Origin: Synechococcales cyanobacterium S06
Lineage (GTDB): Bacteria > Cyanobacteriota > Cyanobacteriia > Cyanobacteriales > JAABRE01
Length of the DNA stretch: 64,000 bases
Direction: 5' to 3'
Assembly: GCA_011391125.1 (NCBI GenBank)
Contig: JAABRE010000015.1
Span: forward strand, 3,700-67,699
Under the pieces are notes generated by a model. It searched no databases, was not told the origin of the DNA, and worked only from the letters and a program-made list of their open reading frames with translations. Shown here piece by piece: positions 5,007 through 60,053 of this stretch; the first letter of the stretch is position 1, and every line of letters starts with the position of its first letter. A program made the translations under genes and the position numbers.

Positions 5007-5034
5007 ATTAAATGATAGTAAACTCTATTACAGT

Positions 5035-5161: not shown

Positions 5162-5236
5162 ACTGTTAACTGTTAACTGTTAACTGATAACTGTTAACTG
5201 ATAACTGATAACTGTTAACTGATAACTAATAACTGA
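5161..5236. repeat. heptamer tandem array (AACTGTT/AACTGAT)n
   Basis: 7-nt periodicity. The array ends 4 nt before the ATG at 5241. Confidence 0.85.
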
Positions 5237-5240
5237 ATAT

Positions 5241-6503
5241 ATGTTAAGAAGTTTGGCTCCTAATCCGTGGAAATCCTTAAAAAAAATCGTAAAAGCTTGG
5301 GAAAAATTTGATTGGTTCTTATTTTTATTAATCGTCGGCTTGACTAATTTTGCAGGGGTAATGATTCAAAGTATCCAACTAGGCCAAGAAGGTAGAAGTG
5401 AATGGTTATTACACTTTATTTTCGCCGGAGTAGGAACTTTTCTCGTTTTAATTATGGCCCGTTTTCGCTATGAATTTCTGCTCCAATGGCATTGGGTCAT
5501 TTATGCGATCGCCAATATCTTATTAATTGGCGTATTTTTCTTGGGGGTAACAGTTAACGGAGCGCAAAACTGGCTTAGTTTAGGTGGTTTAACCATACAA
5601 CCATCAGAATTTGCCAAATTAGCGCTAATTATTAGCTTATCCGCCATTTTACACGAACATCCGGCCTCTAATCTTGGTTCTGTGTTTCGAGCTTTCGGTG
5701 TCACCATTATTCCTTGGATATTAGTCTTATTACAACCAGACTTGGGGACATCCTTGGCATTTGGGGCAATTACCTTGGGAATGCTTTATTGGGCCAATGC
5801 TAACCCTGGTTGGCTTATTTTAATCGTGTCTCCCCTAGTTTCGATTATTTTATTTACCCTATTTTTCCCTGCTTGGGTAATTTGGACGGTTTTAATGGGT
5901 ATAATCGCTTGGTTAACCCTTCCTTTACGGTTTTTCACCACCATCCTCACTGTAGCAATGAATTTGGTTGCTGGTGAATTGGGTAGTCTCCTTTGGGGTG
6001 TCTTAAAACCCTATCAAAAAGACCGTTTAACCCTGTTTCTGAATCCCGAAAAAGACCCTTTAGGGGGAGGTTATCACTTAATTCAATCCCGCATTGCCAT
6101 CGGTTCAGGGGAAATTTGGGGTAAAGGTCTTCATCACGGCACACAAACTCAGTTAAATTTTGTTCCCGAACAACATACGGATTTTATTTTTTCGGCAGTT
6201 GGAGAAGAATATGGCTTTATTGGCGCAATTTTAGTCTTATTGGTCTTTTGGTTAATTTGTTTCCGTTTAATTTATATTGCTTCCACCGCCAAGGAAAATT
6301 TTGGTTCTCTAATTTGTGTTGGTATTCTCTCGATGGTTATCTTTCAGGTAATTGTTAATATTGGCATGACTATTGGTGTAGCACCGATTACGGGTATTCC
6401 CTTACCTTGGATGAGTTATGGTGGTTCTTCCCTTCTAACTAATTTTCTCGCTCTTGGTATCGTCGAATCCATTGCTAGTTATCGACAGAAGAAACGTTTG
6501 TAA
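5241..6503 (+). CDS. SEDS family (FtsW/RodA/SpoVE) peptidoglycan polymerase, probably RodA
   Basis: 420-aa polytopic membrane protein with conserved SEDS blocks QPSEFAKLALII and PLPWMSYGGSS. Confidence 0.8.
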   Translation: MLRSLAPNPWKSLKKIVKAWEKFDWFLFLLIVGLTNFAGVMIQSIQLGQEGRSEWLLHFIFAGVGTFLVLIMARFRYEFLLQWHWVIYAIANILLIGVFFLGVTVNGAQNWLSLGGLTIQPSEFAKLALIISLSAILHEHPASNLGSVFRAFGVTIIPWILVLLQPDLGTSLAFGAITLGMLYWANANPGWLILIVSPLVSIILFTLFFPAWVIWTVLMGIIAWLTLPLRFFTTILTVAMNLVAGELGSLLWGVLKPYQKDRLTLFLNPEKDPLGGGYHLIQSRIAIGSGEIWGKGLHHGTQTQLNFVPEQHTDFIFSAVGEEYGFIGAILVLLVFWLICFRLIYIASTAKENFGSLICVGILSMVIFQVIVNIGMTIGVAPITGIPLPWMSYGGSSLLTNFLALGIVESIASYRQKKRL

Positions 6504-9373: not shown

Positions 9374-9583
9374 GGTAGGGTGGGTAAAACGGCGAAAAAT
9401 TAAAATAAAAAACTTTGATTTATTATCCGTTTTGCCCACCAAGAATAGGTGGGCAAAACGGCAAATTATGTGTTTAATAATCATTGATTTATTATCCGTT
9501 CTGCACGGCAAGAATAGGTGGGCAATGGTGAAAATAATTGAAAATTTATTCCCTTAATTAATCCCACCATTACCCACCCTACC
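9374..9583. repeat. composite inverted-repeat element with internal tandem hairpin units
   Basis: Perfect 14-bp termini GGTAGGGTGGGTAA (9374-9387) and TTACCCACCCTACC (9570-9583). Inside are two copies of about 60 bp. The first forms a perfect 14-bp stem: CCGTTTTGCCCACC (9427-9440), 7-nt loop, GGTGGGCAAAACGG (9448-9461). The element lies between convergent gene ends. Confidence 0.8.
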
Positions 9584-9589
9584 AATTGA

Positions 9590-11869
9590 TTAAAGTGATC
9601 GCCACAATTTCGCAGTATTATTATTTAAAGTAGCAAAGGTCTGACCATCTGAACTAAAAGACATTACCCTTACTTCTTCGTTAATACTGTGTAATTCTTC
9701 TCCTGTGGGAATGTACCAAAATTTAACGGTTTTGTCTCCATAACTGCAGGCTAAAATTTTGCCTTCGGGATGAATGGCGATCGTGATAATATTACTTTTA
9801 TGGTCTGAAAATGTCCTGATTTCTTCTTTGGTATTAATGTCCCATTGTATAATTAAATATTCTTTTACTCCAAATAATGTTTTACTATCTGGACTAAAAA
9901 TCCGAGAATTACCTTGATTTATGTTAGGAAAATATTTATCCACTGATTCATTAAAAGATGCTAAAACTTCACTTAAGTTAATATCTTCAGTAAATTTTCC
10001 AGAATTAAAATCATAAGTTTGAGTACATAAACATGGGGAAGGTTTTTTAAACAAAGGCCTCAGATAAAATCCTTTAAATTGTACTACGAAATATTTATGA
10101 TCCGAAGAAATAGTTGTTTCGCGACTTCTTATTACACTCATATTAATGTTTATTGGTGAGCTAATTCCCAATTTTCTAATAACATTTAAACCCTCTAAAT
10201 ATGGAATAATAATTTCCTTGTCTATTTCTTCCTGAGATTTAGGAGGAATTTCCTCTACTTCTTCCTCAATTTCTAATTCCTCAATGATTACAGGTTCAGA
10301 AACATTGAAAGTAACTTTCATACTATCTTCATAACCAAGAATTGTTAAGAGTTGATTTAATTTATTGATATATTCCTGATCACTGAAAATTAAATTATCT
10401 TCAATCATTGACAAAAGGTCATTTATGCTCACATCGCTGGTTACTTCATTGTCTAAAAGGTAACGTTGTTTTAGCCATAATTTCAGGGAATTAATGACTT
10501 GGGATTTTGCCCAATCTGCTTGGGAAATTTGCGCTAAATTTAAGGCAAAATCTAACAGTAAATCTGGTAATAAAACGCCGTAAATTTCCGCTAAACTTTC
10601 ATATAATTGGTCATAATAAACCTTAACAGATTCCATAATTTCCGTTAGTAAATCACCTTCCTTAATCTCCTTAATTAAATCAGGGATAAAAGTTGGTAAT
10701 AAAGGAGTTAATTGATATTCGCGAATAAAATATTCATCAGCAACCAAACCAGTAAAAATACTGTGATAAATGATCAGAAATTGTGCCAAATTTTCGTAAT
10801 CTTTTTTATTAACAAGATAAGTTAAATTAACCGTATTAATCCCAGCTAATTTAAACTTTTCCGCCTTCTTTAAAGTCGCTAAATTCTGTACATTATCACC
10901 ACCATAAACCAGATCAACGTCTGCGGGAGTTTCCCCTAATTCTATTAATTGATTTCTCGTTTTTTCCCATTCTAAAGCTCTTTCCTTAGCGGAATTAAAC
11001 AGTATTTCTTGATAGGATAAACGGGAAATAATCGGCCGATAATTATAATTTGCACCATTTTTAAACCATTGGGCAATCCTGAAATTGAGATAATCGCCAT
11101 CTATTTCTGATTCTAAAACCAAAGTTGGCTCAGTTTTTAACACACTAAATAAAGACTTGATACTGGCCTCACTGTGAAAAGATTTACTCGTCCACGCACC
11201 CGCTAAAAAGTCAATTTGTTGCTCATAAGTGGTATAATTTTGTAAAAATTGCCTTAAACCTTCCGCAATAGTTAACTCCAAATTTGGTAAATTATCATGG
11301 GGATTATTTTTATTTTGTAAACTTTCAAACTGCAATTTTGGCGGCGCAAAAAAGATGCGTAAAGGAGTAATTTTGCTCGGATTAGTATTAGTAATAATGT
11401 CAGAAGTTACCAACCAAATAGGAGAATTGTCTAATTTTTTCTGCTCCTCTAAAACCTTTAAAGAAGTTTGTCTTTGATAACTTAAAACCTGAGTTTGTAA
11501 CCTGTGATTTAATTCTAAAACCTGTAATTGTAGAGCTTTTTCCTCTTGAAAACGCCATTTTTCAAAATCTAATTTTTTCTCTAACCTAGCATTTTCAGCA
11601 GATTGAATATAATGTTGAATTTCCTTAGCTTTCTCGTGATTTACTTGTGCTAACTGAGATTGTAACTTAATATTATCTTGATGTTGCAAATATTGTAACT
11701 TCATTTGAGCAATTTGTAAATCTTCATAATCATCAGCCACATCCTCATTTTGACTTCTCATATCAAACGCCGTACTAGCAACATGAACTATTGCTCCAGC
11801 AGGACCACCAATAAAAGATTTAGCAGAATTAACAATCGCCTTACCAATACCACCAATCATATCCCACAT
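9590..11869 (-). CDS. orphan multidomain protein: Gly-rich N-terminus, coiled coil, unknown central region, acidic linker, partial WD40 C-terminus
   Basis: 759-aa uninterrupted ORF. The C-terminus carries WD-like blades (GDKTVKFWYIPTGEE, NNTAKLWRSL). The N-terminus is GGIGKAIVNSAKSFIGGPAGAIV, followed by a Q/L/E/K-rich heptad-like stretch. Confidence 0.75.
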   Translation of the reverse strand: MWDMIGGIGKAIVNSAKSFIGGPAGAIVHVASTAFDMRSQNEDVADDYEDLQIAQMKLQYLQHQDNIKLQSQLAQVNHEKAKEIQHYIQSAENARLEKKLDFEKWRFQEEKALQLQVLELNHRLQTQVLSYQRQTSLKVLEEQKKLDNSPIWLVTSDIITNTNPSKITPLRIFFAPPKLQFESLQNKNNPHDNLPNLELTIAEGLRQFLQNYTTYEQQIDFLAGAWTSKSFHSEASIKSLFSVLKTEPTLVLESEIDGDYLNFRIAQWFKNGANYNYRPIISRLSYQEILFNSAKERALEWEKTRNQLIELGETPADVDLVYGGDNVQNLATLKKAEKFKLAGINTVNLTYLVNKKDYENLAQFLIIYHSIFTGLVADEYFIREYQLTPLLPTFIPDLIKEIKEGDLLTEIMESVKVYYDQLYESLAEIYGVLLPDLLLDFALNLAQISQADWAKSQVINSLKLWLKQRYLLDNEVTSDVSINDLLSMIEDNLIFSDQEYINKLNQLLTILGYEDSMKVTFNVSEPVIIEELEIEEEVEEIPPKSQEEIDKEIIIPYLEGLNVIRKLGISSPININMSVIRSRETTISSDHKYFVVQFKGFYLRPLFKKPSPCLCTQTYDFNSGKFTEDINLSEVLASFNESVDKYFPNINQGNSRIFSPDSKTLFGVKEYLIIQWDINTKEEIRTFSDHKSNIITIAIHPEGKILACSYGDKTVKFWYIPTGEELHSINEEVRVMSFSSDGQTFATLNNNTAKLWRSL

Positions 11870-11968
11870 AAAAATTAGGCCCTTTTTATTAAAATTAAAT
11901 ATTTAATATTTAATGATTGATTATACACTGTTAATTATATTTAAGCGCTAAAATATTTATTAAGCAAC

Positions 11969-12086
11969 TTTGCGTGAGACAAAACCCCTGGCCTATGATA
12001 CCAACAGAAAACCCCCTTAGCGCCTTTGCGTCTTTGCGTGAGACAAAACCCCTGGCCTATGATACCAACAGAAAACCCCCTTAGCG
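11969..12086. repeat. two direct copies of a 54-bp unit (11969-12022 and 12033-12086) joined by CTTTGCG-type short repeats
   Basis: Direct reading. The related CTTTGCG run recurs at about 49722-49750. Confidence 0.8.
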
Positions 12087-17022: not shown

Positions 17023-17125
17023 TATAGCAATCCTATTGAAATTGTGGGCCAGACGTTGCATGCAACGTCTCTACCGTAAAAGGTTAGTGAAAACAATTTT
17101 TTACAACCTATTTAGGATTGCTATA
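17023..17125. mobile_element. MITE, TATAGCAATCCTA-terminus family, containing a palindromic core
   Basis: Termini are TATAGCAATCCTA (17023-17035) and TAGGATTGCTATA (17113-17125). The core is AGACGTTGCATGCAACGTCTCTAC. It is an inverted copy of the element at 40405..40506 and ends 2 nt from the stop of the adjacent gene. Confidence 0.8.
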
Positions 17126-17126
17126 G

Positions 17127-18626
17127 TTAATTCTCTGGTTTTTTCTCCTCAGAAACTGGAGTTAAATCTGGTTTTTTCTCCTCAGAAACTGGAGTTAAAT
17201 CTGGTTTTTTCTCCTCAGAAACGGTGGAATTAACAGGGTTTAAATCTGGTTTTTTCTCCTCAGAAACGGTGGAATTAACAGGGTTTAAATCTGGTTTTTT
17301 CTCCTCAGAAACGGTGGAATTAACAGGGTTTAAATCTGGTTTTTTCTCCTCAGAAGGTTTAACCGATTGAGGAATATTATCAAGGAGGGGAGGAGTCGTA
17401 TTATTATTAGTTGACTGGGAATGTTTTTGATTAGCAGGTGGTAGTTGTTCAGGACAAATATTCTGATTATAAGCAAAATCAACGGTCACTAAATAGGGTT
17501 TAGGATTATCTTTTTTAAACTCATAAAAAGATATCTCAAATCGGGCATTTTCGTTAAAAATGGGGTATTCTGCACTTTTTATTAATTGTAAACTGGTTGG
17601 TTCACCCTGGCCGTTGACCAATACTCCATAGGTTGTACTACCTTCCAACTTTTGTAAACAAGCATCTTTGGGATACTTCCCTTTCAAGGTTAATTTTTCT
17701 GGTTCAACCTGATTAATCGTAATCAACCAATTGAGATAATTGGTGGTTGCTTCCTTGTCTGAAGTATTATTCGTATTTTTTGCCAATGCAGCGGCTCGTT
17801 GTTGAAGTTCCGTTCGGGCATTTTCCTGAGCCATGGCTAATAAATCCTGTTCCGAAGGGGGATTAATGTCTTGTTTCCCCGTGGGTGGTAAAAGGGGAAA
17901 TTCCCTGACATTAACGGGGTTTGGGGGGATTTCTGGGTCTTTTGGGGGTAATTTGGTTTCGGGATTCGGATTTTGATTAACTGGAGCATTGGAAAATTCC
18001 CTCAAAATATCGTTGGTACTACGAAGGGGAATTGAGTTAAGATCAACATTCATCTCGGTTTCGATTTCCTGTTGAGTTTCTAATTGTCTTTTTAATTCTT
18101 GTAAATCATCTTTCTGTGGTAGCGCTGGACTATTGTCAGATGGTTCATCAAAAGGCGGATTATTCAAAAGAGGAGGGGGAATGGGTACAGTTTTCGCAAC
18201 CGGTAACTCTTTAATCGCAGGAATTTCGGGGATTTCTGAGATTTCTGGTTTTTGATTGGTTTTATCAGCCAAGTCAGGAGGCAAAAATAAGGAAGTCGTG
18301 GGAAGAGGAGGAAGAGGAGTGGGAGTCGCCGGAAAAGGCAAAGCAAGCGCCGTTTCTAAGATGGGTGTGTTAGGGAGAGGTGTATTGGGAAATTCTGGCA
18401 CTTGAGTTGGTTTGGGCGACAAGTCCGGTAACCGTGCGACTTCTGTGTCGTTTAATTGTACAATGGGGACTGGATTTGTTTTAATATTTTTGTTTTCTAC
18501 CGAAAAGAGGGGCAAATTTGGGACAGCAAATAAAGCTCCATGACCAACCAAGGAAGCGATAATTCCTAGAATTGTACTAATAGGAATCTGATTAGAAAAA
18601 GAGGATTTTAAAGATAAATCAGACAT
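17127..18626 (-). CDS. proline-rich membrane-anchored protein, TonB-like architecture, with a tandem-repeat C-terminal tail
   Basis: One N-terminal TM helix, a long Pro-rich spacer, and a globular C-terminal-like region. The extreme C-terminus has three copies of a 15-aa unit and two of an 11-aa unit (SEEKKPDL...). The TonB assignment is architectural only. Confidence 0.6.
   Translation of the reverse strand: MSDLSLKSSFSNQIPISTILGIIASLVGHGALFAVPNLPLFSVENKNIKTNPVPIVQLNDTEVARLPDLSPKPTQVPEFPNTPLPNTPILETALALPFPATPTPLPPLPTTSLFLPPDLADKTNQKPEISEIPEIPAIKELPVAKTVPIPPPLLNNPPFDEPSDNSPALPQKDDLQELKRQLETQQEIETEMNVDLNSIPLRSTNDILREFSNAPVNQNPNPETKLPPKDPEIPPNPVNVREFPLLPPTGKQDINPPSEQDLLAMAQENARTELQQRAAALAKNTNNTSDKEATTNYLNWLITINQVEPEKLTLKGKYPKDACLQKLEGSTTYGVLVNGQGEPTSLQLIKSAEYPIFNENARFEISFYEFKKDNPKPYLVTVDFAYNQNICPEQLPPANQKHSQSTNNNTTPPLLDNIPQSVKPSEEKKPDLNPVNSTVSEEKKPDLNPVNSTVSEEKKPDLNPVNSTVSEEKKPDLTPVSEEKKPDLTPVSEEKKPEN
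17134..17356. repeat. perfect coding tandem repeats (2 x 33 nt, then 3 x 45 nt, plus a partial unit)
   Basis: Direct reading of TCTGGTTTTTTCTCCTCAGAAAC... units. All unit lengths are multiples of 3. Confidence 0.9.
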
Positions 18627-34522: not shown

Positions 34523-34627
34523 TATAGCACTTGCCAAATTTATGGGGACTCTTTTCCCCCTCTCCCTTTGGGATGAGGGGGGTAGGGGGGTGAGGGGTTG
34601 TATCTCATTTAATCTGAAAATGCTATA
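34523..34627. mobile_element. MITE, TATAGCA-terminus family with a G-rich hairpin core
   Basis: Termini are TATAGCACTTG (34523-) and AAAATGCTATA (-34627). The core is CCCCCTCTCCCTTTGGGATGAGGGGGGTAGGGGGGTGAGGGG. A second copy lies at 59740..59845. Confidence 0.75.
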
Positions 34628-34628
34628 T

Positions 34629-34665
34629 TAACTATCAACTATCAACTATCAACTATCAACTATTA
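34629..34665. repeat. heptamer tandem array (CTATCAA)n
   Basis: 7-nt periodicity. The array ends 2 nt before the ATG at 34668. Confidence 0.85.
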
Positions 34666-34667
34666 AC

Positions 34668-35120
34668 ATGACTTTTTTTCAATTTGAAGCGGCTTTTATC
34701 GAGTCTTTGCGGTGCATTCCCATGCAGATTAGAATCAATTTAGATACCTGTGGAGTTAAACTTAAATTAGCTCATTGGAATAAGTTTGATGAACAGGAAA
34801 AACAGGCTTTAGTTAATCTTCCTTGCACATCTAAAGAAGAAAGTCAAGCCTATCAAAACTTTTTGCAAAGTTTGCTTGTTAAACAAACTGGCAAACCTGC
34901 CCAAATGCTAGAAATAGATGAGTTTCCTGACTGGTTAAATGATAGTAATATTCCCGTCAATGTTAAAGAAAAAGCCGCTGAATTTGGTTTAGAAATTAGT
35001 TTACAGCAATGGGAAAATTTGACTCCTTTACAACGTTTTACTTTAATAAAATTGAGCAGAAAAGGTCACGAAAATCTTAATTTTTACCCAGCTTTAAAAG
35101 AGTTTAATTTGATCAATTAA
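34668..35120 (+). CDS. nitrate reductase-associated protein (small cyanobacterial family found next to narB)
   Basis: 150 aa. The N-terminal FQFEAAFIESLRCIPMQIRINLDTCGVKLKL matches my recollection of the narB-associated family. It lies immediately downstream of narB. Confidence 0.65.
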   Translation: MTFFQFEAAFIESLRCIPMQIRINLDTCGVKLKLAHWNKFDEQEKQALVNLPCTSKEESQAYQNFLQSLLVKQTGKPAQMLEIDEFPDWLNDSNIPVNVKEKAAEFGLEISLQQWENLTPLQRFTLIKLSRKGHENLNFYPALKEFNLIN

Positions 35121-39019: not shown

Positions 39020-40306
39020 ATGAATATTGTAGTTGTTGGTCTATCTCACAAAACAGCACCAGTAGGAATTCGGGAAAAATTAAGCATTCCCGAAGGGAAA
39101 ATAGAAGCAGCGATTACTCAATTAAAAAGCTATCCTCATCTTGATGAAGTGGCGATCATTAGCACTTGTAACCGTCTGGAAATTTACGCTGTAGCCAAGG
39201 AAACCGAAACTGGAGTTCAGGCCATTGCCCAATTTCTCGCCGAATACGGCCACATTTACCTCCATGAATTGAGACGCTATTTGTTTGTCTTATTACGTCA
39301 AGATGCCCTACGTCATTTGATGCGCGTATCAGCAGGTTTAGAAAGCTTGGTTTTAGGAGAAGGTCAAATTTTGGCTCAGGTCAAAACTACCCACAAATTA
39401 GCACAAAAATATAAGGGTTTGGGGCGTTTATTGGATCGTCTCTTTAAGCAAGCGATGACGGCCGGTAAACGGGTTCGTACCGAGACTAATATTGGTACAG
39501 GAGCAGTGTCGATTAGTTCGGCGGCGGTGGAATTGGCTGACGCAAAAGTCGAGCATTTGGAAAATTATCGGATTAGCATTATTGGAGCGGGCAAAATGTC
39601 TCGCTTACTTGTGCAACATTTGGCCGCTAAAGGTTGTCAAAATATTGCCCTAGTCAATAGATCTCACACTAGGGCGCAGGAATTGGCCGATAAATTCCCC
39701 GAAGCAAAGTTGCAAATTCATCTGTTACCAGAAATGATGAATGTAATCGCCAATTCTGACTTGGTTTTTACTAGCACGGGAGCAACTGAACCGATTTTAA
39801 CTAAGGGCAATTTAGAAGCTGTTTTAAAACCCGATCAGGAATTAATGCTGATTGATATTTCTGTCCCCCTCAATGTAGCCACGGATGTTGCTACTATGCC
39901 CAATGTGGCTTCCTATAACGTCGATGACTTAAAAGCCGTGGTTGCTCAAAACCATGCTACCCGTCGCCAAATGGCCCAAGAAGCAGAAGCCTTGTTAGAA
40001 GAAGAGGTTGAAGCTTATGTCGTGTGGTGGCGATCGCTGGAAACTGTACCAACCATTAGCTCTTTACGCAATAAAATTGAGGACATTCGCGAACAGGAAT
40101 TGGAAAAAGCCTTATCCCGTTTAGGTTCGGAGTTTGCGGAAAAGCACCAAGAAGTAATCGAGGCTTTAACCAGAGGTATTGTCAACAAAATTTTACATGA
40201 ACCTATGGTACAATTAAGGGCGCAACAAGATATTGAAGCACGTCACCGTTGTCTGCAATCTTTGCAAATGTTGTTTGATTTAGAGATCGAAGAACAATAC
40301 AGTTAA
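39020..40306 (+). CDS. hemA: glutamyl-tRNA reductase
   Basis: [15 protein letters not shown], the catalytic-Cys context STCNRLEIY, and the NADPH motif IGAGKM. The ATG at 39020 is preferred over the TTG at 38999. Confidence 0.9.
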
Positions 40307-40404
40307 TAGTTGATAGTTGATAGTTGATAGTTGACAGTTGATAGTTGATAGTTGATAGTTGATAGTTGACAGTTGATAGTTGACAGTTGATAGTTGACAG
40401 TTGA
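40301..40404. repeat. heptamer tandem array (AGTTGAT/AGTTGAC)n, about 15 units
   Basis: 7-nt periodicity. The hemA stop TAA (40304-40306) lies in the first unit. Confidence 0.9.
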
Positions 40405-40506
40405 TATAGCAATCCTAAATTAGTTGTAAAAAATTGTTTTCACCAAACCCTTACTGTAGAGACGTTGCATGCAACGTCTCTACACAACGAACATAGAACT
40501 GCTATA
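40405..40506. mobile_element. MITE, TATAGCAATCCTA-terminus family, inserted into the heptamer array
   Basis: The left terminus is TATAGCAATCCTA; the right terminus is degenerate (...AACTGCTATA). It contains the perfect 28-bp palindrome GTAGAGACGTTGCATGCAACGTCTCTAC (40456-40483). Removing the element plus one TA restores ...AGTTGATAGTTGATAG. Confidence 0.8.
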
Positions 40507-40627
40507 GTTGATAGTAAAAAAATTAATATCTAGTTACTAACTTCTATTAACTATTATTCATTATATTTCAGGTAAAATGTATTATAATTAATGACAAGAA
40601 AAGCTGTCTAAGGCCTCCTTCCCCCTC

Positions 40628-40682
40628 AGTTACCAGTTATCAATTGTTAACTGTTAACTGTTAACTGTTAACTGATAACTGA
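40628..40682. repeat. heptamer tandem array (AACTGTT/CAGTTAC variants)
   Basis: 7-nt periodicity. The array ends 1 nt before the ATG at 40684. Confidence 0.8.
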
Positions 40683-40683
40683 A

Positions 40684-43623
40684 ATGACACAATCTTTATT
40701 CTTTAAATTCGTTAAATTTATTTTAATTTTATTAGCTTTGTGGGTGGGTTTTACCATTATCACTAGGTTGATAGTTGAGAGTTTTTGGTTTCAAGAAGTT
40801 GGTTATTTTGATACTTTTTTATTACGTTTACAAACCAAAGTTGGCCTAGGGGCGATCGCTTCAATTATTTCCTTATTATTATTACTAATTAACCTAAATA
40901 TTGCGGATCAAAATAAGTGGAATTATCTCCCACAAAATCAACCAAAATCTAACCAACTTTTACCGCAAACACCTGTTTTAAAATTACCTTTATTATTATT
41001 AATAATTACAGTTTTTTCCTTTTTAAGTGGGTTAATGTTACTTTATTATGGTGAAATTGCCAGCGAATTAAAGCAGGTTGATTTTACTTTACCTAATATT
41101 ATCCCACCCCTACCTTCACCCTTTAAAGTAATTGCTTATTTTAGTAAAATTGCTCCCCAATTTTCTGAGAATATCTTTCATTTATCAGTATTAATAGCTA
41201 CCACAGTCTTTATTATTACTCAAGTTAAACTTACTACAAAAATTATTGCTGGAATTTTAAGTCTGCTTTCTGGTTTTATCTTATCAGCGAATTGGACCAG
41301 ATTTTTAGAATATTTTGCACCCACAGAATTTAATCAAACTGATCCTATTTTTGCCAAAGATATTAGTTTTTATATCTTTAAATTACCTTTTTGGCAATTA
41401 TTAGATTTCTGGTTAAGTGGTTTGTTTTTATCTGGTTTAATCTCCTGTTGTTTAATTTATTTATTATCAGCAAATAGCCTATCTGAAGGAAGATTTCCCG
41501 GATTTTCTACCCCACAATTGCGCCATATTTATATCTTAAGTGGTTTATTTATCTTAACCCTTTCCTTACGTCATTGGTTAACACGTTATGAATTGCTTAA
41601 TTCCCAACGAGGTGTGACTTATGGAGCAGGTTTTACCGATATCAAGATCGAATTACCCATCCAAACTAACTTAGCAATTATTGCTTTAATCATTGCAATT
41701 TGGTTAATTTTGAAAGCCATATTTCATGGTAAAAATAGATTTAGATTATTCCTTAAACAAGATAAATTAGTCCAAAAAACAACCCCTTTAATTGCCGGGG
41801 TTATGGTAATCTATTTATTCCTAACAATTATTGGTTTTTTCTCAAGTCTGCTCATTCAAAGAATTAGCGTTCAACCCAATGAATTGGCCAGGGAAAAACC
41901 CTATATTGAACGAAGTATCGCATATACTAGAAAAGCATTTGGTTTAGATAATATAGACGCAAAAACCTTTGATCCAGAAGATAAATTAACCATTGAAGAT
42001 ATACAAAAAAATTATCTTACTATTGAAAATATCCGTCTTTGGGATACCCGACCAATTTTACAAACTAATCGTCAATTGCAACAAATTAGACTTTATTATA
42101 AGTTTAATGATGCCGATATTGATCGTTATAATTTAACCCTGAAAAAACAGCAAAAGATCGTTACTGAGAAACAACAAATTATTATTGCAGCTCGAGAATT
42201 AGATTATACTGCTGTTCCTAAAGAAGCACAAACTTGGGTTAATGAACATTTAGTCTACACCCATGGTTATGGTTTTACCATGTCTCCAGTTAATCAAGTT
42301 GCTGAAGCCGGCTTGCCTGACTATTATGTTAAAGATATTGGTACAGATACCATAGCAGATCAAGAAGGAAGTTTAAACATTTCTAATAAGTTAATTTCTA
42401 ATACTATTCCCATAGGAAAACCCCGTATTTATTATGGTGAATTAACGAATAATTATATTTTAACAGGGACAAATACTTTGGAATTTGACTTTCCTAGCGG
42501 GGAAGAAAATGTTTATAATACCTATGATGGGAAAGGAGGAATTTCTATTAAAAATATTGGGCAAAGATTATTATTTGGAAGCTATTTGAGGGATTGGCGC
42601 ATTCTTTTTGCTCAAAATATTACTCCGGAAACTAAACTTTTATTCCGTCGTAATATTAACATGAGAATAAGGGCGATCGCTCCTTTTTTGCATTACGATA
42701 AAAACCCTTATTTAGTAATTGCTGATGGAAACGATACTAATATAAATGGCGAAAAAAATTATTTATATTGGGTGATTGATGCTTACACCACAACAGATCA
42801 TTATCCCTACTCTGATCCCGGAAATAACAGTTTTAATTATATTAGAAACTCCGTTAAAGTTGTTATTAATGCCTATAATGGTGACATAAATTTTTATATT
42901 TCTGATCAGAATGATCCCATTCTACAAACATGGGAAAAGTTATTTCCTAACCTATTTAAACCCATTGAAAAAATGCCTGCAAATATTTTCGCTCATATTC
43001 GTTATCCCACGGATTTATTTACCATCCAATCCGAACGTTTATTGTCTTATCACATGACAGACCCCCAAGTATTTTATAATCGCGAAGATCAATGGGAAAT
43101 TCCCCAAGAAATTTATGCCAATCAGTCTCAACCCATTGATCCCTATTATTTGATCATGAAATTACCCACTGCAAAATCCGAGGAATTTATCCTACTTCAC
43201 CCCTACACTCCCCGAAGTCGACCTAATTTAATTGCCTGGTTGGCGGGACGTTCAGATGGCGAAGAATATGGTAAATTACTGTTATATCAATTCCCGAAAC
43301 AAAAATTAATTTATGGTCCTGATCAAATTGAAGCTTTAATTAATCAAGACCCCGTTATTTCCCAACAAATATCCCTCTGGAATCGGGAAGGTAGTAGAGC
43401 AATTCAAGGTAATTTATTAGTCATTCCCATTGAACAATCTTTATTATATGTGGAACCTTTATATTTAGAAGCAGAAAGAAATAGTTTGCCTACTTTAGCT
43501 AGAGTTATTGTAGTATATGAAAATAAAATTATTATGGCCGATAATTTATCCGATGCTTTAACAGCAGTTTTTACTCCCAAAAAACAGGAAAATACTGCCA
43601 TTATTCGACCACTTGGTAGTTGA
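40684..43623 (+). CDS. UPF0182 family large membrane protein
   Basis: 979 aa. The N-terminal third is multi-TM, followed by a large soluble region. The VYTHGYGF and WLAGRSDG-type blocks resemble UPF0182. Confidence 0.75.
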   Translation: MTQSLFFKFVKFILILLALWVGFTIITRLIVESFWFQEVGYFDTFLLRLQTKVGLGAIASIISLLLLLINLNIADQNKWNYLPQNQPKSNQLLPQTPVLKLPLLLLIITVFSFLSGLMLLYYGEIASELKQVDFTLPNIIPPLPSPFKVIAYFSKIAPQFSENIFHLSVLIATTVFIITQVKLTTKIIAGILSLLSGFILSANWTRFLEYFAPTEFNQTDPIFAKDISFYIFKLPFWQLLDFWLSGLFLSGLISCCLIYLLSANSLSEGRFPGFSTPQLRHIYILSGLFILTLSLRHWLTRYELLNSQRGVTYGAGFTDIKIELPIQTNLAIIALIIAIWLILKAIFHGKNRFRLFLKQDKLVQKTTPLIAGVMVIYLFLTIIGFFSSLLIQRISVQPNELAREKPYIERSIAYTRKAFGLDNIDAKTFDPEDKLTIEDIQKNYLTIENIRLWDTRPILQTNRQLQQIRLYYKFNDADIDRYNLTLKKQQKIVTEKQQIIIAARELDYTAVPKEAQTWVNEHLVYTHGYGFTMSPVNQVAEAGLPDYYVKDIGTDTIADQEGSLNISNKLISNTIPIGKPRIYYGELTNNYILTGTNTLEFDFPSGEENVYNTYDGKGGISIKNIGQRLLFGSYLRDWRILFAQNITPETKLLFRRNINMRIRAIAPFLHYDKNPYLVIADGNDTNINGEKNYLYWVIDAYTTTDHYPYSDPGNNSFNYIRNSVKVVINAYNGDINFYISDQNDPILQTWEKLFPNLFKPIEKMPANIFAHIRYPTDLFTIQSERLLSYHMTDPQVFYNREDQWEIPQEIYANQSQPIDPYYLIMKLPTAKSEEFILLHPYTPRSRPNLIAWLAGRSDGEEYGKLLLYQFPKQKLIYGPDQIEALINQDPVISQQISLWNREGSRAIQGNLLVIPIEQSLLYVEPLYLEAERNSLPTLARVIVVYENKIIMADNLSDALTAVFTPKKQENTAIIRPLGS

Positions 43624-43667
43624 TAGTTGATAGTTGATAGTTGACAGTTGATAGTTGACAGTTGATC
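43618..43667. repeat. heptamer tandem array (AGTTGAT/AGTTGAC)n
   Basis: 7-nt periodicity. The stop TGA (43621-43623) of the upstream gene lies in the first unit. Confidence 0.9.
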
Positions 43668-43704
43668 AGTCTTTTCTTATTTATTACTTCCTACTTTTTA
43701 CTTC

Positions 43705-45766: not shown

Positions 45767-46855
45767 TTAAATGGAGTTAAATTCATAGATATAACCATCT
45801 TGTTGATGTATGCAAGCAAACAAGGAGAGTTTTCCACCAATACGTTTCCCATTAACTCTAACTTCTAATCTTGTAGCTGATTGAATGACCATTTTTCCTG
45901 TATAAGAAACACCATCTTTAATAATAGTTGCTATATCTCCTGTTTTCCAACCCATGTTATATTTTTGACGTGGTTTTGAGATAGGAAATCCATATTTATT
46001 AATTCGACATAATCTCCTTGTACCTTGTCCTTTTGCTGTTATTATTAAGGGATTTTTTGTTAATAATTTTAAGGTAGTAATATCTCCCACACAAGCAGCA
46101 TCAATCCAATGAGTTTTTGGGAAGTTTAATTTAATACGATTAAATTTGGTTTTACCTCCACTACTGGTAATAAGTGGTAATCCCATTTCTTTTCAAGAAT
46201 TAAACAGTTGCCAACGAGTTGTATTAACCGCAGTAGCGTCTTTTAATGGTTGTTTTGCTTGTGTTTTAATTTGTTGTAGTAATTGTGGTTGATCACTTAA
46301 AAAGTGATCAATTAATTGACTACCTTTTTTCTGATTACAACCTTTACAAGCAAGGGTTAAATTAGAAATGCGATTACTACCTCCAAGGGATTTGGGTTTA
46401 ATATGTTCAATTTCTAAAGGAACATCTTTTTTACCACAATAAACGCAATTTCTACCCCATTTTTCTAATAAATATTCTCGAATTTCATAACCTTGTAATT
46501 CACCTCTTTCAGTTACCAGTGAACAGTTACCAGTGAACAGATAATTAATAGTTAATAACTGATAACTGATAACTGATAACTGATAACTGAAATGACCACG
46601 ATGTTTTAATTCTGCTCCCCAAATTACTTGATTATTAGAAACTAAAGCAACTCCTGTAGTTTTTGAACCAGGGTCGAGTTTTAATTCTATAGGTTGACTA
46701 ACAACATTGAGTTTTACTTCCTTGAGAATAATTGTAAATGGATAACGTCTAAAAACCGATGCTTTCCTTTGTTTTAATAGCTTTCGAGCTACACTAGGGT
46801 GAGTGGGTTGTAAAGGTGTTTTGTTGGCATCTAAAACAAAAACATAATTGCTCAT
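45767..46855 (-). pseudogene. iscB: decayed IscB-type RNA-guided nuclease (RuvC-HNH, IS200/IS605-associated OMEGA family)
   Basis: The N-terminus is PLMP-like (VFVLDANKTPLQPTHPSVARKLLKQRKA). RuvC-I is LDPGSKTTGVAL, HNH is CVYCGKKDVPLEIEHIKPKSLGGSNRISNLTLACKGCNQKKG, and RuvC-III is THWIDAACVG. An in-frame TGA lies at 46193-46195 (LFNS*KEMGLP). The segment between RuvC-I and HNH is replaced by heptamer-repeat-encoded SYQLSVISYQLLTINYLFTGNCSLV. Confidence 0.75.
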
Positions 46856-49655: not shown

Positions 49656-49772
49656 ATCGGTTTGTAAGGGGACTTTAAACAAGTAACTTAACTATTGCTC
49701 AAACCAGGACTTTGCGTTCTTCTTTGCGTCTTTGCGCCTTTGCGTGAGAAAAAAGCTAAAATTAAATTAACA

Positions 49773-50852
49773 ATGATCAAGATTTATACAGAACCGGAAA
49801 AAGCCTCCCACTGGTTAGCCAAATATCGGGCTAAAAAGCCAGTTTTTGCCTGTATTTTAGGCTTTACCGACACCGGTTTAATCACTGGTATCTCCGCCGC
49901 CGGATCAACCCCAGAAGACCGTAAATATACGGCTATAGCCGATGCAGAATATTTAATCGAGGGACAAAAACCAAACCCCAAATATCCCTTACCACCCTTA
50001 ACCCACGGAGCATCTCCGGTGTTAATTTCTCGTGCGGTGGTAAAATCTTTATCCATACCGGTTTATTTATTTAATGCTGGTCTTCCCCTCCCTCCAGCAG
50101 TACCTTATCTTAATTTAAACGGTAAACCAGCTAATTGTCTTACTTCTGGTCAAGCTTTACCCTTAGACCTAGTCAAACAATTATTTGAACAGGGGTTAAC
50201 TTGGGGAGAAAAATTAGCGCAGGAAACTGACTATTTAGTTATTGGTGAATGTGTTGTCGGTGGCACTACCACAGCTTTAGCCATTTTAACAGGTTTAGGA
50301 ATTAATGCCAAGGATAAGGTTAATAGTAGTCATCCCCAATGTAACCATCAGCAAAAATGGGACATCGTCGAAACTGGTTTAAGAAAGGCGAATTTATATC
50401 CAGTAGTAAGTCAACCTGACCCCTTTGAATTAGTCGCTGCTGTTGGCGATCCCATGCAGGTTGTAGCAGCGGGTATGGCGATTAGTGCTAGTCGTCACTC
50501 CGGGGTAATGTTGGCCGGAGGTACGCAAATGTTAGCTGTTTATAGTTTATTACTGGCGATCGTTAATTATCATAATTTATCAGTTATTTTAGATGAAATT
50601 GTCGTCGGAACTACCCGTTGGGTGGCCGAAGATTCCACCGGTGATACAATTGGTTTAGCTGAGGCGATCGGCAATGTCCCTTTATTCGCCACACAATTGA
50701 ACTTTACCGAGTCACCTTACCCAGTATTGCAAGTATATGAGCAGGGTTTCGTCAAGGAAGGTGTGGGAGCAGGGGGGTTGGCGATCGCCGCTAGTCTCTA
50801 CCAAGGGTGGACAAATGAACAGCTTTTAGCTCAAATTCATCAATTAATCTAA
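49773..50852 (+). CDS. CobT-like nicotinate-mononucleotide phosphoribosyltransferase homologue (UPF0284/TIGR00303-type)
   Basis: Typical blocks are FACILGFTDTGLITGISAAG and GECVVGGTTTA. The start is set at MIKIYTEPE because the upstream extension reads through a CTTTGCG repeat. Confidence 0.7.
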   Translation: MIKIYTEPEKASHWLAKYRAKKPVFACILGFTDTGLITGISAAGSTPEDRKYTAIADAEYLIEGQKPNPKYPLPPLTHGASPVLISRAVVKSLSIPVYLFNAGLPLPPAVPYLNLNGKPANCLTSGQALPLDLVKQLFEQGLTWGEKLAQETDYLVIGECVVGGTTTALAILTGLGINAKDKVNSSHPQCNHQQKWDIVETGLRKANLYPVVSQPDPFELVAAVGDPMQVVAAGMAISASRHSGVMLAGGTQMLAVYSLLLAIVNYHNLSVILDEIVVGTTRWVAEDSTGDTIGLAEAIGNVPLFATQLNFTESPYPVLQVYEQGFVKEGVGAGGLAIAASLYQGWTNEQLLAQIHQLI

Positions 50853-50856
50853 TTAG

Positions 50857-51214
50857 GGTTTACGGAAAAAAGCTGACAGCTATGTAGATCAAGACTTTTA
50901 AGTTGGTGGGACTTGAATTAAGGGCAAGGATTTCAACAAATAATAGTAAAAAACCTGGCGTTGCATGACTCTGAGATGAAATTGTAGGGGCAATCCCTTG
51001 TGGTTGCCCCCGAAACGCTGATAGGGTAGGGACAAGCCCTACCCCTACATTGAAAATAAATATCAAATCATCTTGCATAGGTGCAACGCCAAAAACCTTA
51101 CATTTACGGGGATTAATCAAGATTTTTGCTCGTCAAAAGACCCGGTCAAACTATCAACTATCAACTATCAACTATCAACTCGCCCTCACCAGCCATTTAT
51201 TCAGCAAGCCCTAA
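50857..51214. repeat. about 215-bp dispersed intergenic repeat, copy 2, interrupted by a 134-bp MITE
   Basis: Matches the reverse complement of 2912..3126 on both sides of 50957-51090. It fills the gap between convergent genes. Confidence 0.85.
50957..51090. mobile_element. 134-bp MITE with 9-bp terminal inverted repeats and an 8-bp target-site duplication
   Basis: TIRs are GGCGTTGCA (50957-) and TGCAACGCC (-51090), flanked by AAAAACCT at 50949-50956 and 51091-51098. Two internal hairpins are present: GGGGCAA/TTGCCCC (50987-51010) and GGGTAGGG/CCCTACCC (51024-51044). The paralogous site at 3027-3034 is empty. Confidence 0.85.
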
Positions 51215-51850
51215 TTACCTTTTCCTTTCTTCTAATTTGCGATAAACATCCCGCAAACTCACCTTATGATAAGCTAAGGCCACCAAAGTATGATAGAATA
51301 AATCCGCTACCTCCCCCGCAATCTCCTCTTTTACATCATCTTTGCAGGCCATAACAACTTCGGCGGATTCTTCACCAATTTTCTTTAAAATTTTGTTATC
51401 CCCTCCAGCCAATAACTTACAAGTGTAGGAAGTTTCGTTTGGGTGATCCCGACGATGTTCAATTACTGCAAATAAATCCGATAAGGTGTCGGCAGGAGGG
51501 GCAATTTTTCCCTCTTCTAATTGGTGGAAACAACTTCTTTCACCGGTGTGACAGGCAATATCACCAACTTGTTCAACGGTAACTAAAAGTGCATCACTAT
51601 CACAATCATAACGAATACTGCGCACTTTTTGAATATACCCTGATGTTTCCCCTTTATGCCAGAATTCTTGACGTGACCGACTCCAATACCAAGTTTCCCC
51701 AGTTGCTAAGGTTTTCTCTAGGGATTCTCGATTCATCCAGGCCAGCATTAACACTGTACCATCTAAATGATCTTGGGCGATCGCCGGTACTAAACCCTGT
51801 TCATTATAACGAATTTTATCTAAAGGGATTGCGTTACTAAAATTAGACAT
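51215..51850 (-). CDS. hisIE: bifunctional phosphoribosyl-AMP cyclohydrolase / phosphoribosyl-ATP pyrophosphatase
   Basis: 211 aa. The HisI block is [15 protein letters not shown]...DCD. The HisE half is the C-terminal helical NTP-pyrophosphatase. Confidence 0.9.
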
Positions 51851-52635: not shown

Positions 52636-55600
52636 ATGTCAATTACTCTTATTAATCAATATCGTCGGGATTTAGAAGCTAAAATTCGTTTTGGTGGTTC
52701 TCGTAACGAAAATTCTGTCAGATTTGCTTTCGGTAATTTGCTAAATTCCTATTGTAAAGCGCGGGATTTTGTCTTGGTTGATGAGTTAACTATTTCTAGT
52801 CGTTTTAATACTCAGATTCGCCTTGATGGCATTGTTAAAGATGCTTTAAGACTGGATTGGGGGTATTGGGAGGCTAAAGATGAAAAAGATAATTTAGATG
52901 AGGAAATTGAGTTAAAAATTAATCAGAAAGGTTATCCCACTGATAATATTTTATTTGAGGATACTAAGACTGCTGTTTTAATCCAAAATGGCCGAGAAAC
53001 CCTACGGATTAAGATGGAAAATGACACCGATTTAGATAAGATTATTAATCTATTTTTAGACTACGAAAGAGGAGAAGTTAAAGATTTTCGACAAGCAATT
53101 TCCTCTTTTAAGGAAGATTTACCCACGATTTTAACTACTCTGAGAAATCTAATTGATCAGCAACTTGTAGAGACGTACCATGGTACGTCTCTACAAACAT
53201 TTAAAGATAAATTTAACGTTTTTTTAAAAGTTTGTCAAGATTCCATCAATCCTAATCTTAATGAAGCTGATATTCGGGAGATGATTATTCAGCATATTTT
53301 AACTGAGGATATTTTTACTAATATCTTTAGTGAGGGACAATTTCACCAAGAAAATAATGTTGCTTGTCAGTTACAAGAACTAATTAAAACCTTTTTTACA
53401 GGTAGTCTTAAACGCCAGACTTTAAAAACTATTGAAAGTTATTATCAAGTAATTATTAGAACCGCTGCTAATATTGTCAATCATCAGGAAAAACAGAAGT
53501 TTTTAAAAGTAGTTTATGAGAATTTCTATCAGGCCTATAATCCTTTGGCGGCCGATCGCCTCGGAATCGTTTATACTCCGAATGAAATCGTTAAATTCAT
53601 GGTGGAAAGTACCGATTATTTATTAACCAAATACTTTCAAAAAACCTTGGGCGATCGGGGAGTTGAAATCTTAGATCCAGCCACGGGTACAGGTACTTTT
53701 ATCACCGAAATTTTAGAGTATTTATTAACCAGAGATATTACCTATAAATATCAGCATGAAATCCACTGTAATGAGGTTTCTATTTTGCCCTATTATATCG
53801 CAAATCTTAATATTGAATACAGTTATCAGCAAAAAACTGGACAATATTTAGAGTTTAATAATATCTGTTTAGTTGATACTTTGGAGCATAGTTCCTTTAG
53901 TGGTAAACAGATGGATATATTCGCCATGAGTCAGGAAAATACGGAGCGAATTAAGCGACAAAATGAACGAAAAATATCAGTCATTATTGGCAATCCTCCC
54001 TATAATGCTAAACAAGAAAACTTTAATCAAAATAATGCAAATCGTGGTTATCAAAGTATAGATAAACGTATCAAAGATACTTATGTAAAAGAAGGAAATG
54101 CACAAAATCAAATAGTATTGTATGATATGTACACTAGGTTTATAAGATGGGCAACAGACAGATTAAATGATAACGGAATTATTGCATTTATTACAAATTC
54201 CTCTTTTATTGATGCACTAACTTTTGATGGTTTTAGAAAGGTTATTTCCTCTGAATTTAGTCAGATTTATGTCATTGATTTAGGAGGTAATATTAGAGCA
54301 GGGGATAAAACAGGAAATGTGTTTAATATTATGGTGGGAGTTGCCATTACTTTCTTAGTGAAAAAATCCGACTCCCCTCACCATCTGGGAGAGGAGTCGG
54401 GAGTGAAGAAAAATTGTCAAATTTACTATCAAAAATTAGCTCAAAATAATAGCAAAGATAAGTTAAATTATTTAGCACAAACTCAATTTAAAGATATTCC
54501 TTTTGAACACCTTACCCCTGATAAAAAGCATAACTGGATTAATCAAGTAGATAATAATTTCGATGAATTACTACCTTTAATTGATAAAAATGTTAAGTCA
54601 GGAAAATCTGAGCAAGCAATTTTTAAGTTATTTTCGAGGGGAATTGGTACTTATCGAGATGATTGGGTTTATGATTTTTCTGAGGAAAATTTAACTAAAA
54701 AAGTAGCGTTTTTTATTGAAACTTATCAAAAAACCTTACAAGATAACGACTTTAAAGACAAAAATAACATAAAATGGGATCGGGAATTAACTAATTATTT
54801 AAAGAGAAGAATTCATAAAGAATTTAATCAAGAGCAGATTATTTCAAGTTTATATCGGCCATTTATTAAACAATATTTGTATTTTGATAAACATCTTAAT
54901 GGGATGACTTATCAATGGTTTGATATTTACAGAAAAAAAGATCAAGATAATAAATATATTGCATTTTTAACATTAGGAAATAGTAAATCTTTTCATTGTT
55001 TAGCAACAAATTTAATGGTTGATTTACACTTAACCGGTGATTCTCAATGTCTTCCCTTATCTAGTTATGATGAAAATGGCGAAAAAATTGATAATATAAC
55101 GGATTGGGGATTAGAACAGTTTAGGGAATATTATCAACCCTCACCCCCCCAACCCCCCTCTCTCTCAGAGAGAGGGGGGAGAAGACTTTCAGATAATTCT
55201 AGCTCCCCTCACCCTGTGGGAGAGGGGTTGGGGGTGAGGGCTAATCCGCCTACAGGAGAAAAGTTGGGGGTGAGGAAAATAACTAAACTAGACATATTCC
55301 ATTATATTTATGCAGTTTTACATAATCCGAAATACAGGGAAAAATACGAGCAGAATTTGAAACGAGATTTCCCAAGAATACCTTTTTATCCTAATTTTAA
55401 TCAGTGGAAAAATTGGGGTGAAAAATTAATGGAATTACATCTAAATTATGAGAGTATTTCACCTTATCCTTTGAAAAATGTAGAGACGTTGCATGCAACG
55501 TCTCTACATTCAATCCCAAAACCCAAATTAAAAGTAGATAAAACCAAGGGTCAAATAATCATTGATGAGATTACCATTTTAGAAAATGTCCCCGAAATTG

Positions 55601-55812
55601 CCTGGGAATATAAATTAGGCAATCGTAGTGCGATTGAGTGGATTTTAGACCAATATAAAGAGAAGAAAATTAAAGATGAAACCATTTCCAAACATTTTAA
55701 TAATTACCGTTTTTCTGATTATAAAGAGGAGGTGATCGACTTATTAATGCGTGTTACTACTGTTAGTGTGGAAACCATGAATATTATTAATCAAATGGAT
55801 AATCTCGACTAA
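52636..55812 (+). CDS. Type IIG-like fused restriction endonuclease / N6-adenine DNA methyltransferase with a C-terminal specificity region; carries in-frame repeat insertions
   Basis: The N-terminal PD-(D/E)XK-like motif is RLDG...WEAKD (D64, E79-x-K81). The SAM motif is LDPATGTGTF and the catalytic motif is IGNPPYN. 1058 aa, uninterrupted. Confidence 0.8.
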   Translation: MSITLINQYRRDLEAKIRFGGSRNENSVRFAFGNLLNSYCKARDFVLVDELTISSRFNTQIRLDGIVKDALRLDWGYWEAKDEKDNLDEEIELKINQKGYPTDNILFEDTKTAVLIQNGRETLRIKMENDTDLDKIINLFLDYERGEVKDFRQAISSFKEDLPTILTTLRNLIDQQLVETYHGTSLQTFKDKFNVFLKVCQDSINPNLNEADIREMIIQHILTEDIFTNIFSEGQFHQENNVACQLQELIKTFFTGSLKRQTLKTIESYYQVIIRTAANIVNHQEKQKFLKVVYENFYQAYNPLAADRLGIVYTPNEIVKFMVESTDYLLTKYFQKTLGDRGVEILDPATGTGTFITEILEYLLTRDITYKYQHEIHCNEVSILPYYIANLNIEYSYQQKTGQYLEFNNICLVDTLEHSSFSGKQMDIFAMSQENTERIKRQNERKISVIIGNPPYNAKQENFNQNNANRGYQSIDKRIKDTYVKEGNAQNQIVLYDMYTRFIRWATDRLNDNGIIAFITNSSFIDALTFDGFRKVISSEFSQIYVIDLGGNIRAGDKTGNVFNIMVGVAITFLVKKSDSPHHLGEESGVKKNCQIYYQKLAQNNSKDKLNYLAQTQFKDIPFEHLTPDKKHNWINQVDNNFDELLPLIDKNVKSGKSEQAIFKLFSRGIGTYRDDWVYDFSEENLTKKVAFFIETYQKTLQDNDFKDKNNIKWDRELTNYLKRRIHKEFNQEQIISSLYRPFIKQYLYFDKHLNGMTYQWFDIYRKKDQDNKYIAFLTLGNSKSFHCLATNLMVDLHLTGDSQCLPLSSYDENGEKIDNITDWGLEQFREYYQPSPPQPPSLSERGGRRLSDNSSSPHPVGEGLGVRANPPTGEKLGVRKITKLDIFHYIYAVLHNPKYREKYEQNLKRDFPRIPFYPNFNQWKNWGEKLMELHLNYESISPYPLKNVETLHATSLHSIPKPKLKVDKTKGQIIIDEITILENVPEIAWEYKLGNRSAIEWILDQYKEKKIKDETISKHFNNYRFSDYKEEVIDLLMRVTTVSVETMNIINQMDNLD

Positions 55813-59662: not shown

Positions 59663-59743
59663 TTATAGTAATTCCAAATACAAATTAAACAATATAAAAC
59701 AAACCTATTTTTCAACTGTTCTAATCTTAATTGGAATTACTAT
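59663..59743. mobile_element. MITE, TATAGTAATTCCAA-terminus family (81-bp copy)
   Basis: Perfect 14-bp TIRs TATAGTAATTCCAA (59663-59676) and TTGGAATTACTATA (59730-59743). Confidence 0.8.
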
Positions 59744-59845
59744 AGCATTTTTAGTTGATATTTTGCCCTTTTCCCCCCTCTCCCTTTGGGATGAGGGGGG
59801 TTGGGGGGTGAGGGGGTATATAACACTTAATCAGAAAATGCTATA
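59740..59845. mobile_element. MITE, TATAGCATTTT-terminus family with a G-rich hairpin core, inserted at the terminal TA of the preceding MITE
   Basis: TIRs are TATAGCATTTT (59740-59750) and AAAATGCTATA (59835-59845). The core is CCCCCCTCTCCCTTTGGGATGAGGGGGGTTGGGGGGTGAGGGGG. Confidence 0.8.
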
Positions 59846-60053
59846 TAAAACTTTGAAACCCTTTTCTCTTAAACTTTTGACAAGAGCTCAAGGCCCTCTA
59901 AATTCCAGTTTATAACTGATTTATTGATCTGTGTGTGTGGTAAAATACCTAAACCCAGAAATCCCATTTCTTTCATTTTTGTTGTATCAAAATTTACTAA
60001 ACTAAAAATACAAATAGATTATTCTATATCAGTAAAGAAATAGTCTCTTAACC

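Follow-up and report, generated by a model that had tools for sequence, protein, structure and literature searches.

Type I MITEs of bacteria are defined by terminal inverted repeats that they have in common with an insertion sequence (IS), as is the case for Nezha and an ISNpu3-like element, and in Microcystis MITEs co-occur with the IS1-family element ISMae1 (PMC3184786, PMC2779907, PMC3542288). IS1-family elements measure 740-1180 bp, carry two reading frames, have ends of the form GGnnnTG and are flanked by direct repeats of 8-9 bp (PMC10425158, Table 8; ISfinder-derived). A second kind of small repeat, the GTAG-tagged REP dimer, occurs in Anabaena, Nostoc and Cyanothece, where some dimers are large-looped or lie within longer palindromes, and in A. 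variabilis REP dimers are embedded in longer palindromic repeats (PMC3733652).

Here we describe a 134-bp unit in a contig of Synechococcales cyanobacterium S06, within a stretch of 64,000 nucleotides (hereafter the window) for which a preliminary description had been made from the letters alone. The unit shares with type I bacterial MITEs (PMC3184786, PMC2779907, PMC3542288) its small size, non-coding character, multiple copies, terminal inverted repeats, target duplication, strong folding and intergenic position. We conclude that it is very probably a type I MITE of an IS1-family clade, with IS1 ends of ~26 nt, that was moved in trans by an IS1-family transposase.

Results

A filled and an empty site in one window

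The preliminary description had equated a repeat of ~215 bp at 2912-3126 with 50857-51214. The match itself holds, while the borders have to be moved to those given in Table 1, making the host repeat ~226 bp in size: alignment and the repeat finder both pair an uninterrupted copy A on the minus strand with a copy B that is split by exactly 134 bp, the same extra segment that had originally been delimited. The first pair of arms (2908-3034 versus 51091-51217) spans 127 nt and is 98% complementary, the second (3027-3133 versus 50850-50956) spans 107 nt and is 93% complementary, and both pairs were recovered by the two approaches. The arms of copy A share exactly 8 nt (AGGTTTTT on the plus strand), whereas those of copy B are kept apart by the 134 bp. 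As the overlap in copy A is 8 nt, adding 134 bp and one more AAAAACCT to copy A yields copy B. The 8-bp duplication that had been noted on either side of the insert, and as a single occurrence in copy A, is thereby confirmed, because the arms overlap by precisely those 8 nt.

A deletion between 8-bp direct repeats would give exactly the observed arrangement, and the direction of change is unreadable from the window alone. The preliminary description had named, as the alternative to insertion, a deletion in copy A between direct repeats; the 134 bp would then be ancestral to the host repeat, and copy A would have lost them by recombination or slippage between the AAAAACCT repeats. We reject this scenario as extremely improbable, because the unit is also found at no fewer than eight further loci, where the flanking sequence has no relation to the host repeat (see below), and because its borders are perfect inverted repeats of the IS1-family end type; moreover, elements with those ends produce 8-bp duplications. 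With its filled and empty sites, its further copies and its IS1-type ends, the unit is instead a non-autonomous insertion with an 8-bp target site duplication (TSD) into another repeat, as first proposed.

Table 1. Position of the insertion, its flanking genes and other repeats in the window
Feature	Position	Strand	Remarks
134-bp MITE, non-autonomous, IS1-type ends	50957-51090	.	extra segment relative to copy A
Target site duplication, left copy, AAAAACCT	50949-50956	+	sequence, alignment, repeat finder
Target site duplication, right copy, AAAAACCT	51091-51098	+	sequence, alignment, repeat finder
Paralogous empty site, single AAAAACCT	3027-3034	-	inverted-pair arms I1/I2 overlap by these 8 nt
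Host repeat copy A, uninterrupted	2908-3133	-	alignment, repeat finder
Host repeat copy B, interrupted by the MITE	50850-51217	+	occupies the whole convergent-gene spacer; alignment, repeat finder
Left terminal inverted repeat	50957-50982	+	9-nt core GGCGTTGCA at 50957-50965, imperfect extension, AGATGA box at 50974-50979; end comparison
Right terminal inverted repeat	51065-51090	-	perfect 9-nt core at 51082-51090, TCATCT box at 51068-51073; end comparison
Hairpin 1 with GTAG tag	50984-51010	+	GTAG GGGCAA ... TTGCCCC, 7-bp stem, 10-nt loop; folding
Hairpin 2 with GTAG tag	51024-51048	-	GTAG GGGTAGGG CTTGT CCCTACCC, 8-bp stem; folding
CobT-like phosphoribosyltransferase (DBI_PRT) gene	49695-50852	+	flanking gene, start codon uncertain
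hisIE	51215-51850	-	flanking gene, convergent with the CobT-like gene
Heptamer arrays	2454-2577, 4935-5044, 5149-5242, 34625-34676		
Heptamer arrays	40279-40430, 40623-40702, 43589-43698, 46521-46596		
Direct repeat, 55 nt, perfect	11968-12022 and 12032-12086		64-nt spacing
Tandem pair, 69 nt	9379-9516		
Tandem array, 45 nt	17154-17355		
Inverted pair, 75 nt	17051-17125 with 40405-40479		23 kb apart, 91% complementary
Dispersed pair, 46 nt	5116-5161 with 59699-59744		93% identical

Two successive insertions between cobT-like and hisIE

At site B, the 362-bp spacer between the convergent CobT-like and hisIE genes is wholly filled by the host repeat and the insert. An Rfam scan of 50600-51500 (E <= 1) returned no match, and a scan of the site B region for promoters and terminators found nothing exceeding background. 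The nearest named organism by HisIE sequence is Gloeothece citriformis PCC 7424 (83% identity), while the closest metagenomic relatives reach 88-95%, indicating that the source lineage is poorly sampled. The HIP1 octamer GCGATCGC is present 32 times in the window (0.19 expected), which, like the many heptamer arrays, marks the DNA as cyanobacterial.

The host repeat possesses its own imperfect terminal inverted repeat of ~26 nt (TAATTAGGGYTTRC.GAA.AAA..GCTG; matched in score by 1 of 500 shuffles), is flanked by TA in both copies and contains an (ACTATCA)4 array. It is absent from the hisIE/cobT-like spacer of two relatives: in L067, a metagenome contig with the same gene order and a HisIE that is 88% identical, this spacer measures 9 bp (10636-10646), and in L065, the closest relative (HisIE 95% identical), unrelated sequence lies downstream of hisIE (1444-1519). 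BLASTN of the host repeat against 72,556 plasmids gave only chance matches to the heptamer array. The host repeat, too, is MITE-like and was inserted; given its absence from the same spacer in the relatives, the site records two successive insertions, that of the host repeat and then that of the IS1-type MITE inside it.

Several other repeats were seen in the window (Table 1). The intergenic tandem arrays of heptamers (GTTGATA/GTTGACA and CTGTTAA/CTGATAA) resemble STRR repeats, and Logan contigs of the same organism (run SRR29699977), the only ones with proteins identical to those of the window, are short and broken at heptamer repeats. A repeat rich in G/C runs (CCCTCACCCCCC.A.CCCCCCTC...) occurs three times, at 34552-34631, 55138-55184 and 59770-59849; the copy at 55138-55184 lies in frame within a 1058-aa ORF (52636-55812), where it encodes ...PSPPQPPSLSERGG... 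and looks like a small repeat inserted into coding sequence with the frame unbroken.

Termini and fold of the 134-bp unit

The insert begins with GGCGTTGCA and finishes with TGCAACGCC, in line with the 9-bp terminal inverted repeats described before. The two ends, in opposite orientations, are the only occurrences of GGCGTTGCA in the 64-kb window (0.16 expected), and none of 100 shuffles contained two or more matches to it. Beyond this core the inverted repeat is imperfect: over ~26 nt the two ends agree at 17 of 26 positions, and an AGATGA box occupies positions 18-23 counted inwards from either end. GGCGTTG, present at both ends, fits the GGnnnTG of the IS1 family. At 134 bp and without a transposase gene, the unit lies within the size range of MITEs (under ~600 bp). 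Its interior consists of AT-rich filler and two GC-rich hairpins, both of which had been recognized earlier from their 7-bp and 8-bp stems; the stem of hairpin 1 (GGGGCAA/TTGCCCC) spans 50987-51010 and that of hairpin 2 (GGGTAGGG/CCCTACCC) spans 51024-51044. The unit folds to -28.8 kcal/mol as DNA (z = -5.3) and to -54.7 kcal/mol as RNA (z = -5.5), with none of 200 shuffles folding as well. Its minus strand is one open frame from end to end (45 codons, GVAPMQDD...SHATP), and the ORF spanning the unit has no Pfam match.

The core of the unit, two GC-rich palindromes in inverted orientation with a GTAG tag outward on each, one of them large-looped, is reminiscent of the GTAG-12, GTAG-15 and GTAG-16 REP dimers (Di Nocera et al. 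2013, PMC3733652). The unit might accordingly be a REP/REPIN-type pair of GTAG-tagged palindromes served by a RAYT (Y1) transposase, its IS1-like ends being incidental. We deem this highly improbable: the two hairpin stems differ from each other and thus form no REPIN doublet, both hairpin types are confined to the MITE in the 64 kb, where free-standing GTAG-tagged copies are absent, and the 26-nt terminal inverted repeats and 8-bp duplication set the unit apart from RAYT-moved elements and typify the behaviour of a DDE-type transposon. To our knowledge, RAYT or IS200/IS605-type mobile elements have neither 26-nt terminal inverted repeats nor 8-bp target duplications. A compromise between the two, in which IS1-type ends captured a GTAG-tagged REP-like palindrome pair, strikes us as distinctly unlikely; such a chimera could be recognised by two mobilisation systems that are unrelated to each other, with a DDE IS1 transposase acting on the ends and either a RAYT or an IS1111-type enzyme acting on the GTAG hairpins.

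IS1-family elements of other cyanobacteria share the ends of the unit

The reading of the unit as an IS1-type MITE draws on longer elements with the same termini. A degenerate 23-nt pattern built to match both insert ends (GGCGTTGCAYSWMTSYRAGATGA) had eight matches in 596 Gb of representative genomes, all of them in cyanobacteria, and one in the metagenome collection, and six of these nine mark the termini of elements coding for IS1-type proteins. Four complete copies of 766-770 bp in Waterburya sp. and one copy of 867 bp in Hydrococcus sp. are bounded by GGCGTTGCA...TGCAACGCC; a fifth Waterburya match has the same left part without a matching right end, and the match in the metagenome contig comprises a left end and an InsA-like reading frame. 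The remaining two matches, in Stigonema and Aerosakkonema, are lone ends. Scanning the genomes and metagenomes with GGCGTTGCAYSWMTSYRAGATGA revealed no further MITE copies in these collections, which do not contain the source species.

In the complete elements, a zinc finger and a helix-turn-helix are encoded upstream of a DDE domain, which Pfam identifies as PF03400 DDE_Tnp_IS1 (E = 3.5e-16 and 6.9e-16), and the two frames are separated by an A-run, where a programmed frameshift would occur. TBLASTN of this IS1-type protein against the plasmids led to four 755-bp elements of Nostocales (Nostoc C052, Nostoc C057, Calothrix 336/3 and Cylindrospermopsis), annotated in RefSeq as 'IS1 family transposase'. 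All four begin with GGCGTTGCAT; three finish in its exact complement, and the Nostoc C052 element has a degenerate right end. Perfect 8-bp duplications flank the four plasmid elements (CAATTTAA, CAATTGTT, GAAAATCT and AGTTATTC) and one Waterburya copy (AAGTGTTT); a clean duplication is missing at the other three complete Waterburya copies and at the Hydrococcus copy. The preliminary description had proposed a search for longer elements that share the termini and encode a transposase, and these IS1-family elements of 755-870 bp from Nostoc, Calothrix, Cylindrospermopsis, Waterburya and Hydrococcus are what such a search yields.

Overall, the MITE ends match intact IS ends at 16-23 of 26 positions. 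The left end agrees at 17-21 of 26 positions with intact cyanobacterial IS1-family ends (11 of 26 with the degenerate right end of Nostoc C052), and the right end has its best matches, 23 of 26, in the right end of the Waterburya IS1 element and in a lone end from Stigonema. The elements of Nostoc sp. C057, Calothrix sp. 336/3, Cylindrospermopsis curvispora and Waterburya sp. OZ244627 have the same terminal 9-10 nt as the unit (GGCGTTGCA[T]), and cyanobacterial IS1 elements also share with it a G/AGATGA box at equal distance from the end, 8-bp duplications and AT-rich targets. They differ from it in having ~755-870 bp with insA/insB, whereas the unit has 134 bp, lacks insA/insB and is unrelated in its interior. 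As the interior shows no detectable IS1 homology and likeness to ISs is limited to the ~26-nt ends, an origin by internal deletion of an IS remains a conjecture.

Lone IS1-type ends (GGCGTTGCATCAAT.C.AGATGAT) were noticed in Stigonema (L057, 6521-6543) and Aerosakkonema (L058, 1684-1706), neither of which has a matching second end within the 8-kb stretch around it; the Stigonema end immediately precedes a reading frame starting with MTTATKKLTLEEYLAYDDG. Both probably represent relics of IS1 elements or MITEs.

The expected autonomous partner that makes 8-bp duplications is thus represented by IS1-family elements in other cyanobacteria; in the source genome, of which the 64-kb window was searched, no IS1-family transposase or other IS1 homology was found. 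Two partner candidates selected from 1,225 cyanobacterial IS1 transposases (P0157 and P0145) were dismissed, as they come from unrelated metagenome assemblies. The bare ends proved too unspecific as a search pattern, since GGCGTTGCA N{105,135} TGCAACGCC had 49 matches in viral contigs, none of them internally alike. A literature search for the end sequence returned only primer sequences.

Further copies of the unit

Neither a second copy in the 64-kb window nor a BLASTN match in 72,556 plasmids was found for the 134-bp unit. We took advantage of its open minus strand and searched protein collections with the 45-aa peptide, so that the multicopy status, the ends and the duplications of other copies were assessed at the protein level, on translated ORFs. 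Eight ORFs on NCBI contigs of 9.9-78 kb carry the peptide with 100% identity, and a ninth, P0010, falls into a cluster with P0005. Leaving out P0007, which is the window's own copy, the remaining ORFs (P0001-P0006, P0008 and P0010) contain 41-45 aa of the element translation, 100% identical, between differing flanks; as the flanking residues differ among these eight ORFs, they mark separate loci, giving at least eight loci besides the one in the window. In P0001, 14 aa (42 bp) between the hairpins are additionally duplicated in tandem, and this copy would be ~176 bp long.

The preliminary description had called for other copies with the flanking duplication, and at least two of the other loci agree with this. 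Back-translation of the flanks, with which random flanks are compatible in 1.75% of cases, correctly recovered the duplication of the window's own copy as a positive control (AGGTTTT[T/C]). P0003 and P0010 each fit a single 8-mer (AAGAAATT and ACATTTTT, respectively, on the coding strand of the ORF) and P0002 is weakly compatible with an 8-bp duplication, while P0004 is incompatible with a perfect one, failing at one of three checkable positions.

An exhaustive HMMER search of 1.84 billion representative proteins with the 45-aa translation returned only near-identical copies and no divergent relatives. One weak match that we examined, P0131, is an FG-GAP protein and spurious. As far as the searched collections show, the family seems lineage-restricted, very homogeneous and confined to one genome, which fits a recent amplification, and the apparent identity of the translated copies points to a recent burst. 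The recent mobility that had been suggested is consistent with a target duplication and terminal repeats that are both perfect, and with translated copies that are 100% identical in amino-acid sequence. The predicted proteins P0001-P0010 themselves (55-95 aa, at least nine copies) are best regarded as gene-calling artefacts; those checked contain no Pfam domain.

These searches also bear on the named cyanobacterial MITE Nezha (130-170 bp, with an ISNpu3-like element as its proposed partner), of which the unit might be a copy, being alike in size range, host phylum, terminal inverted repeats, direct repeats and stable folds (PMC3184786). We consider this identity very unlikely. A Nezha template (NC_007413:2978180-2978317, 138 bp) has a 10-bp direct repeat, CATTATCTAC (PMC6042816), versus 8 bp here, the two being compared by description; in addition, the 134-bp unit has no BLASTN match in the 72,556 plasmids, and its translation has no relatives beyond near-identical copies among the 1.84 billion proteins.

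Discussion

The anatomy of the insertion, the multiple copies, the IS1-type ends and the 8-bp duplications of IS1 elements together describe a MITE of the IS1-family clade, and we infer that the unit is mobilised in trans by an IS1-family transposase and that such a transposase is present in this genome, or was so recently. In the proposed course of events, the unit would have kept only the ~26-nt ends of a cyanobacterial IS1-family insertion sequence, without the transposase. Acting in trans, a DDE transposase of the IS1 family would bind the terminal GGCGTTGCA and the subterminal AGATGA box, cut an AT-rich target with an 8-bp stagger and insert the unit, and repair of the stagger would then create the AAAAACCT duplication. 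The target in this instance would have been another small mobile repeat between the convergent cobT-like and hisIE genes, and the uninterrupted paralogue at 2908-3133 would preserve the pre-insertion sequence. Known and inferred targets of the unit are AAAAACCT, AAGAAATT and ACATTTTT.

As part of the unlikely chimeric reading, the unit could, between convergent genes, act as a portable two-way transcription terminator or as an RNA-stabilising module. On the same reading, as its minus strand is open over 45 codons, insertion into genes could add an in-frame peptide rather than truncate the product. On the practical side, copies of the MITE account for contig breaks in the draft assembly, ORFs called across the unit (P0001-P0010) merit a flag as gene-calling artefacts, and the seeming identity of the copies makes them useful markers for strain typing.

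The unit is a clean but ordinary case of a known kind of element, and it leaves the understanding of MITEs unchanged. The site is a natural record of transposition, with a filled and a paralogous empty site in one window and the insertion nested in a second mobile repeat. The ends alone suffice to identify IS1 as the partner family. An IS1-derived MITE is added to the repertoire of cyanobacterial mobile elements, and in Nostocales and Pleurocapsales alike the IS1 clade in question keeps its GGCGTTGCA ends together with 8-bp duplications.
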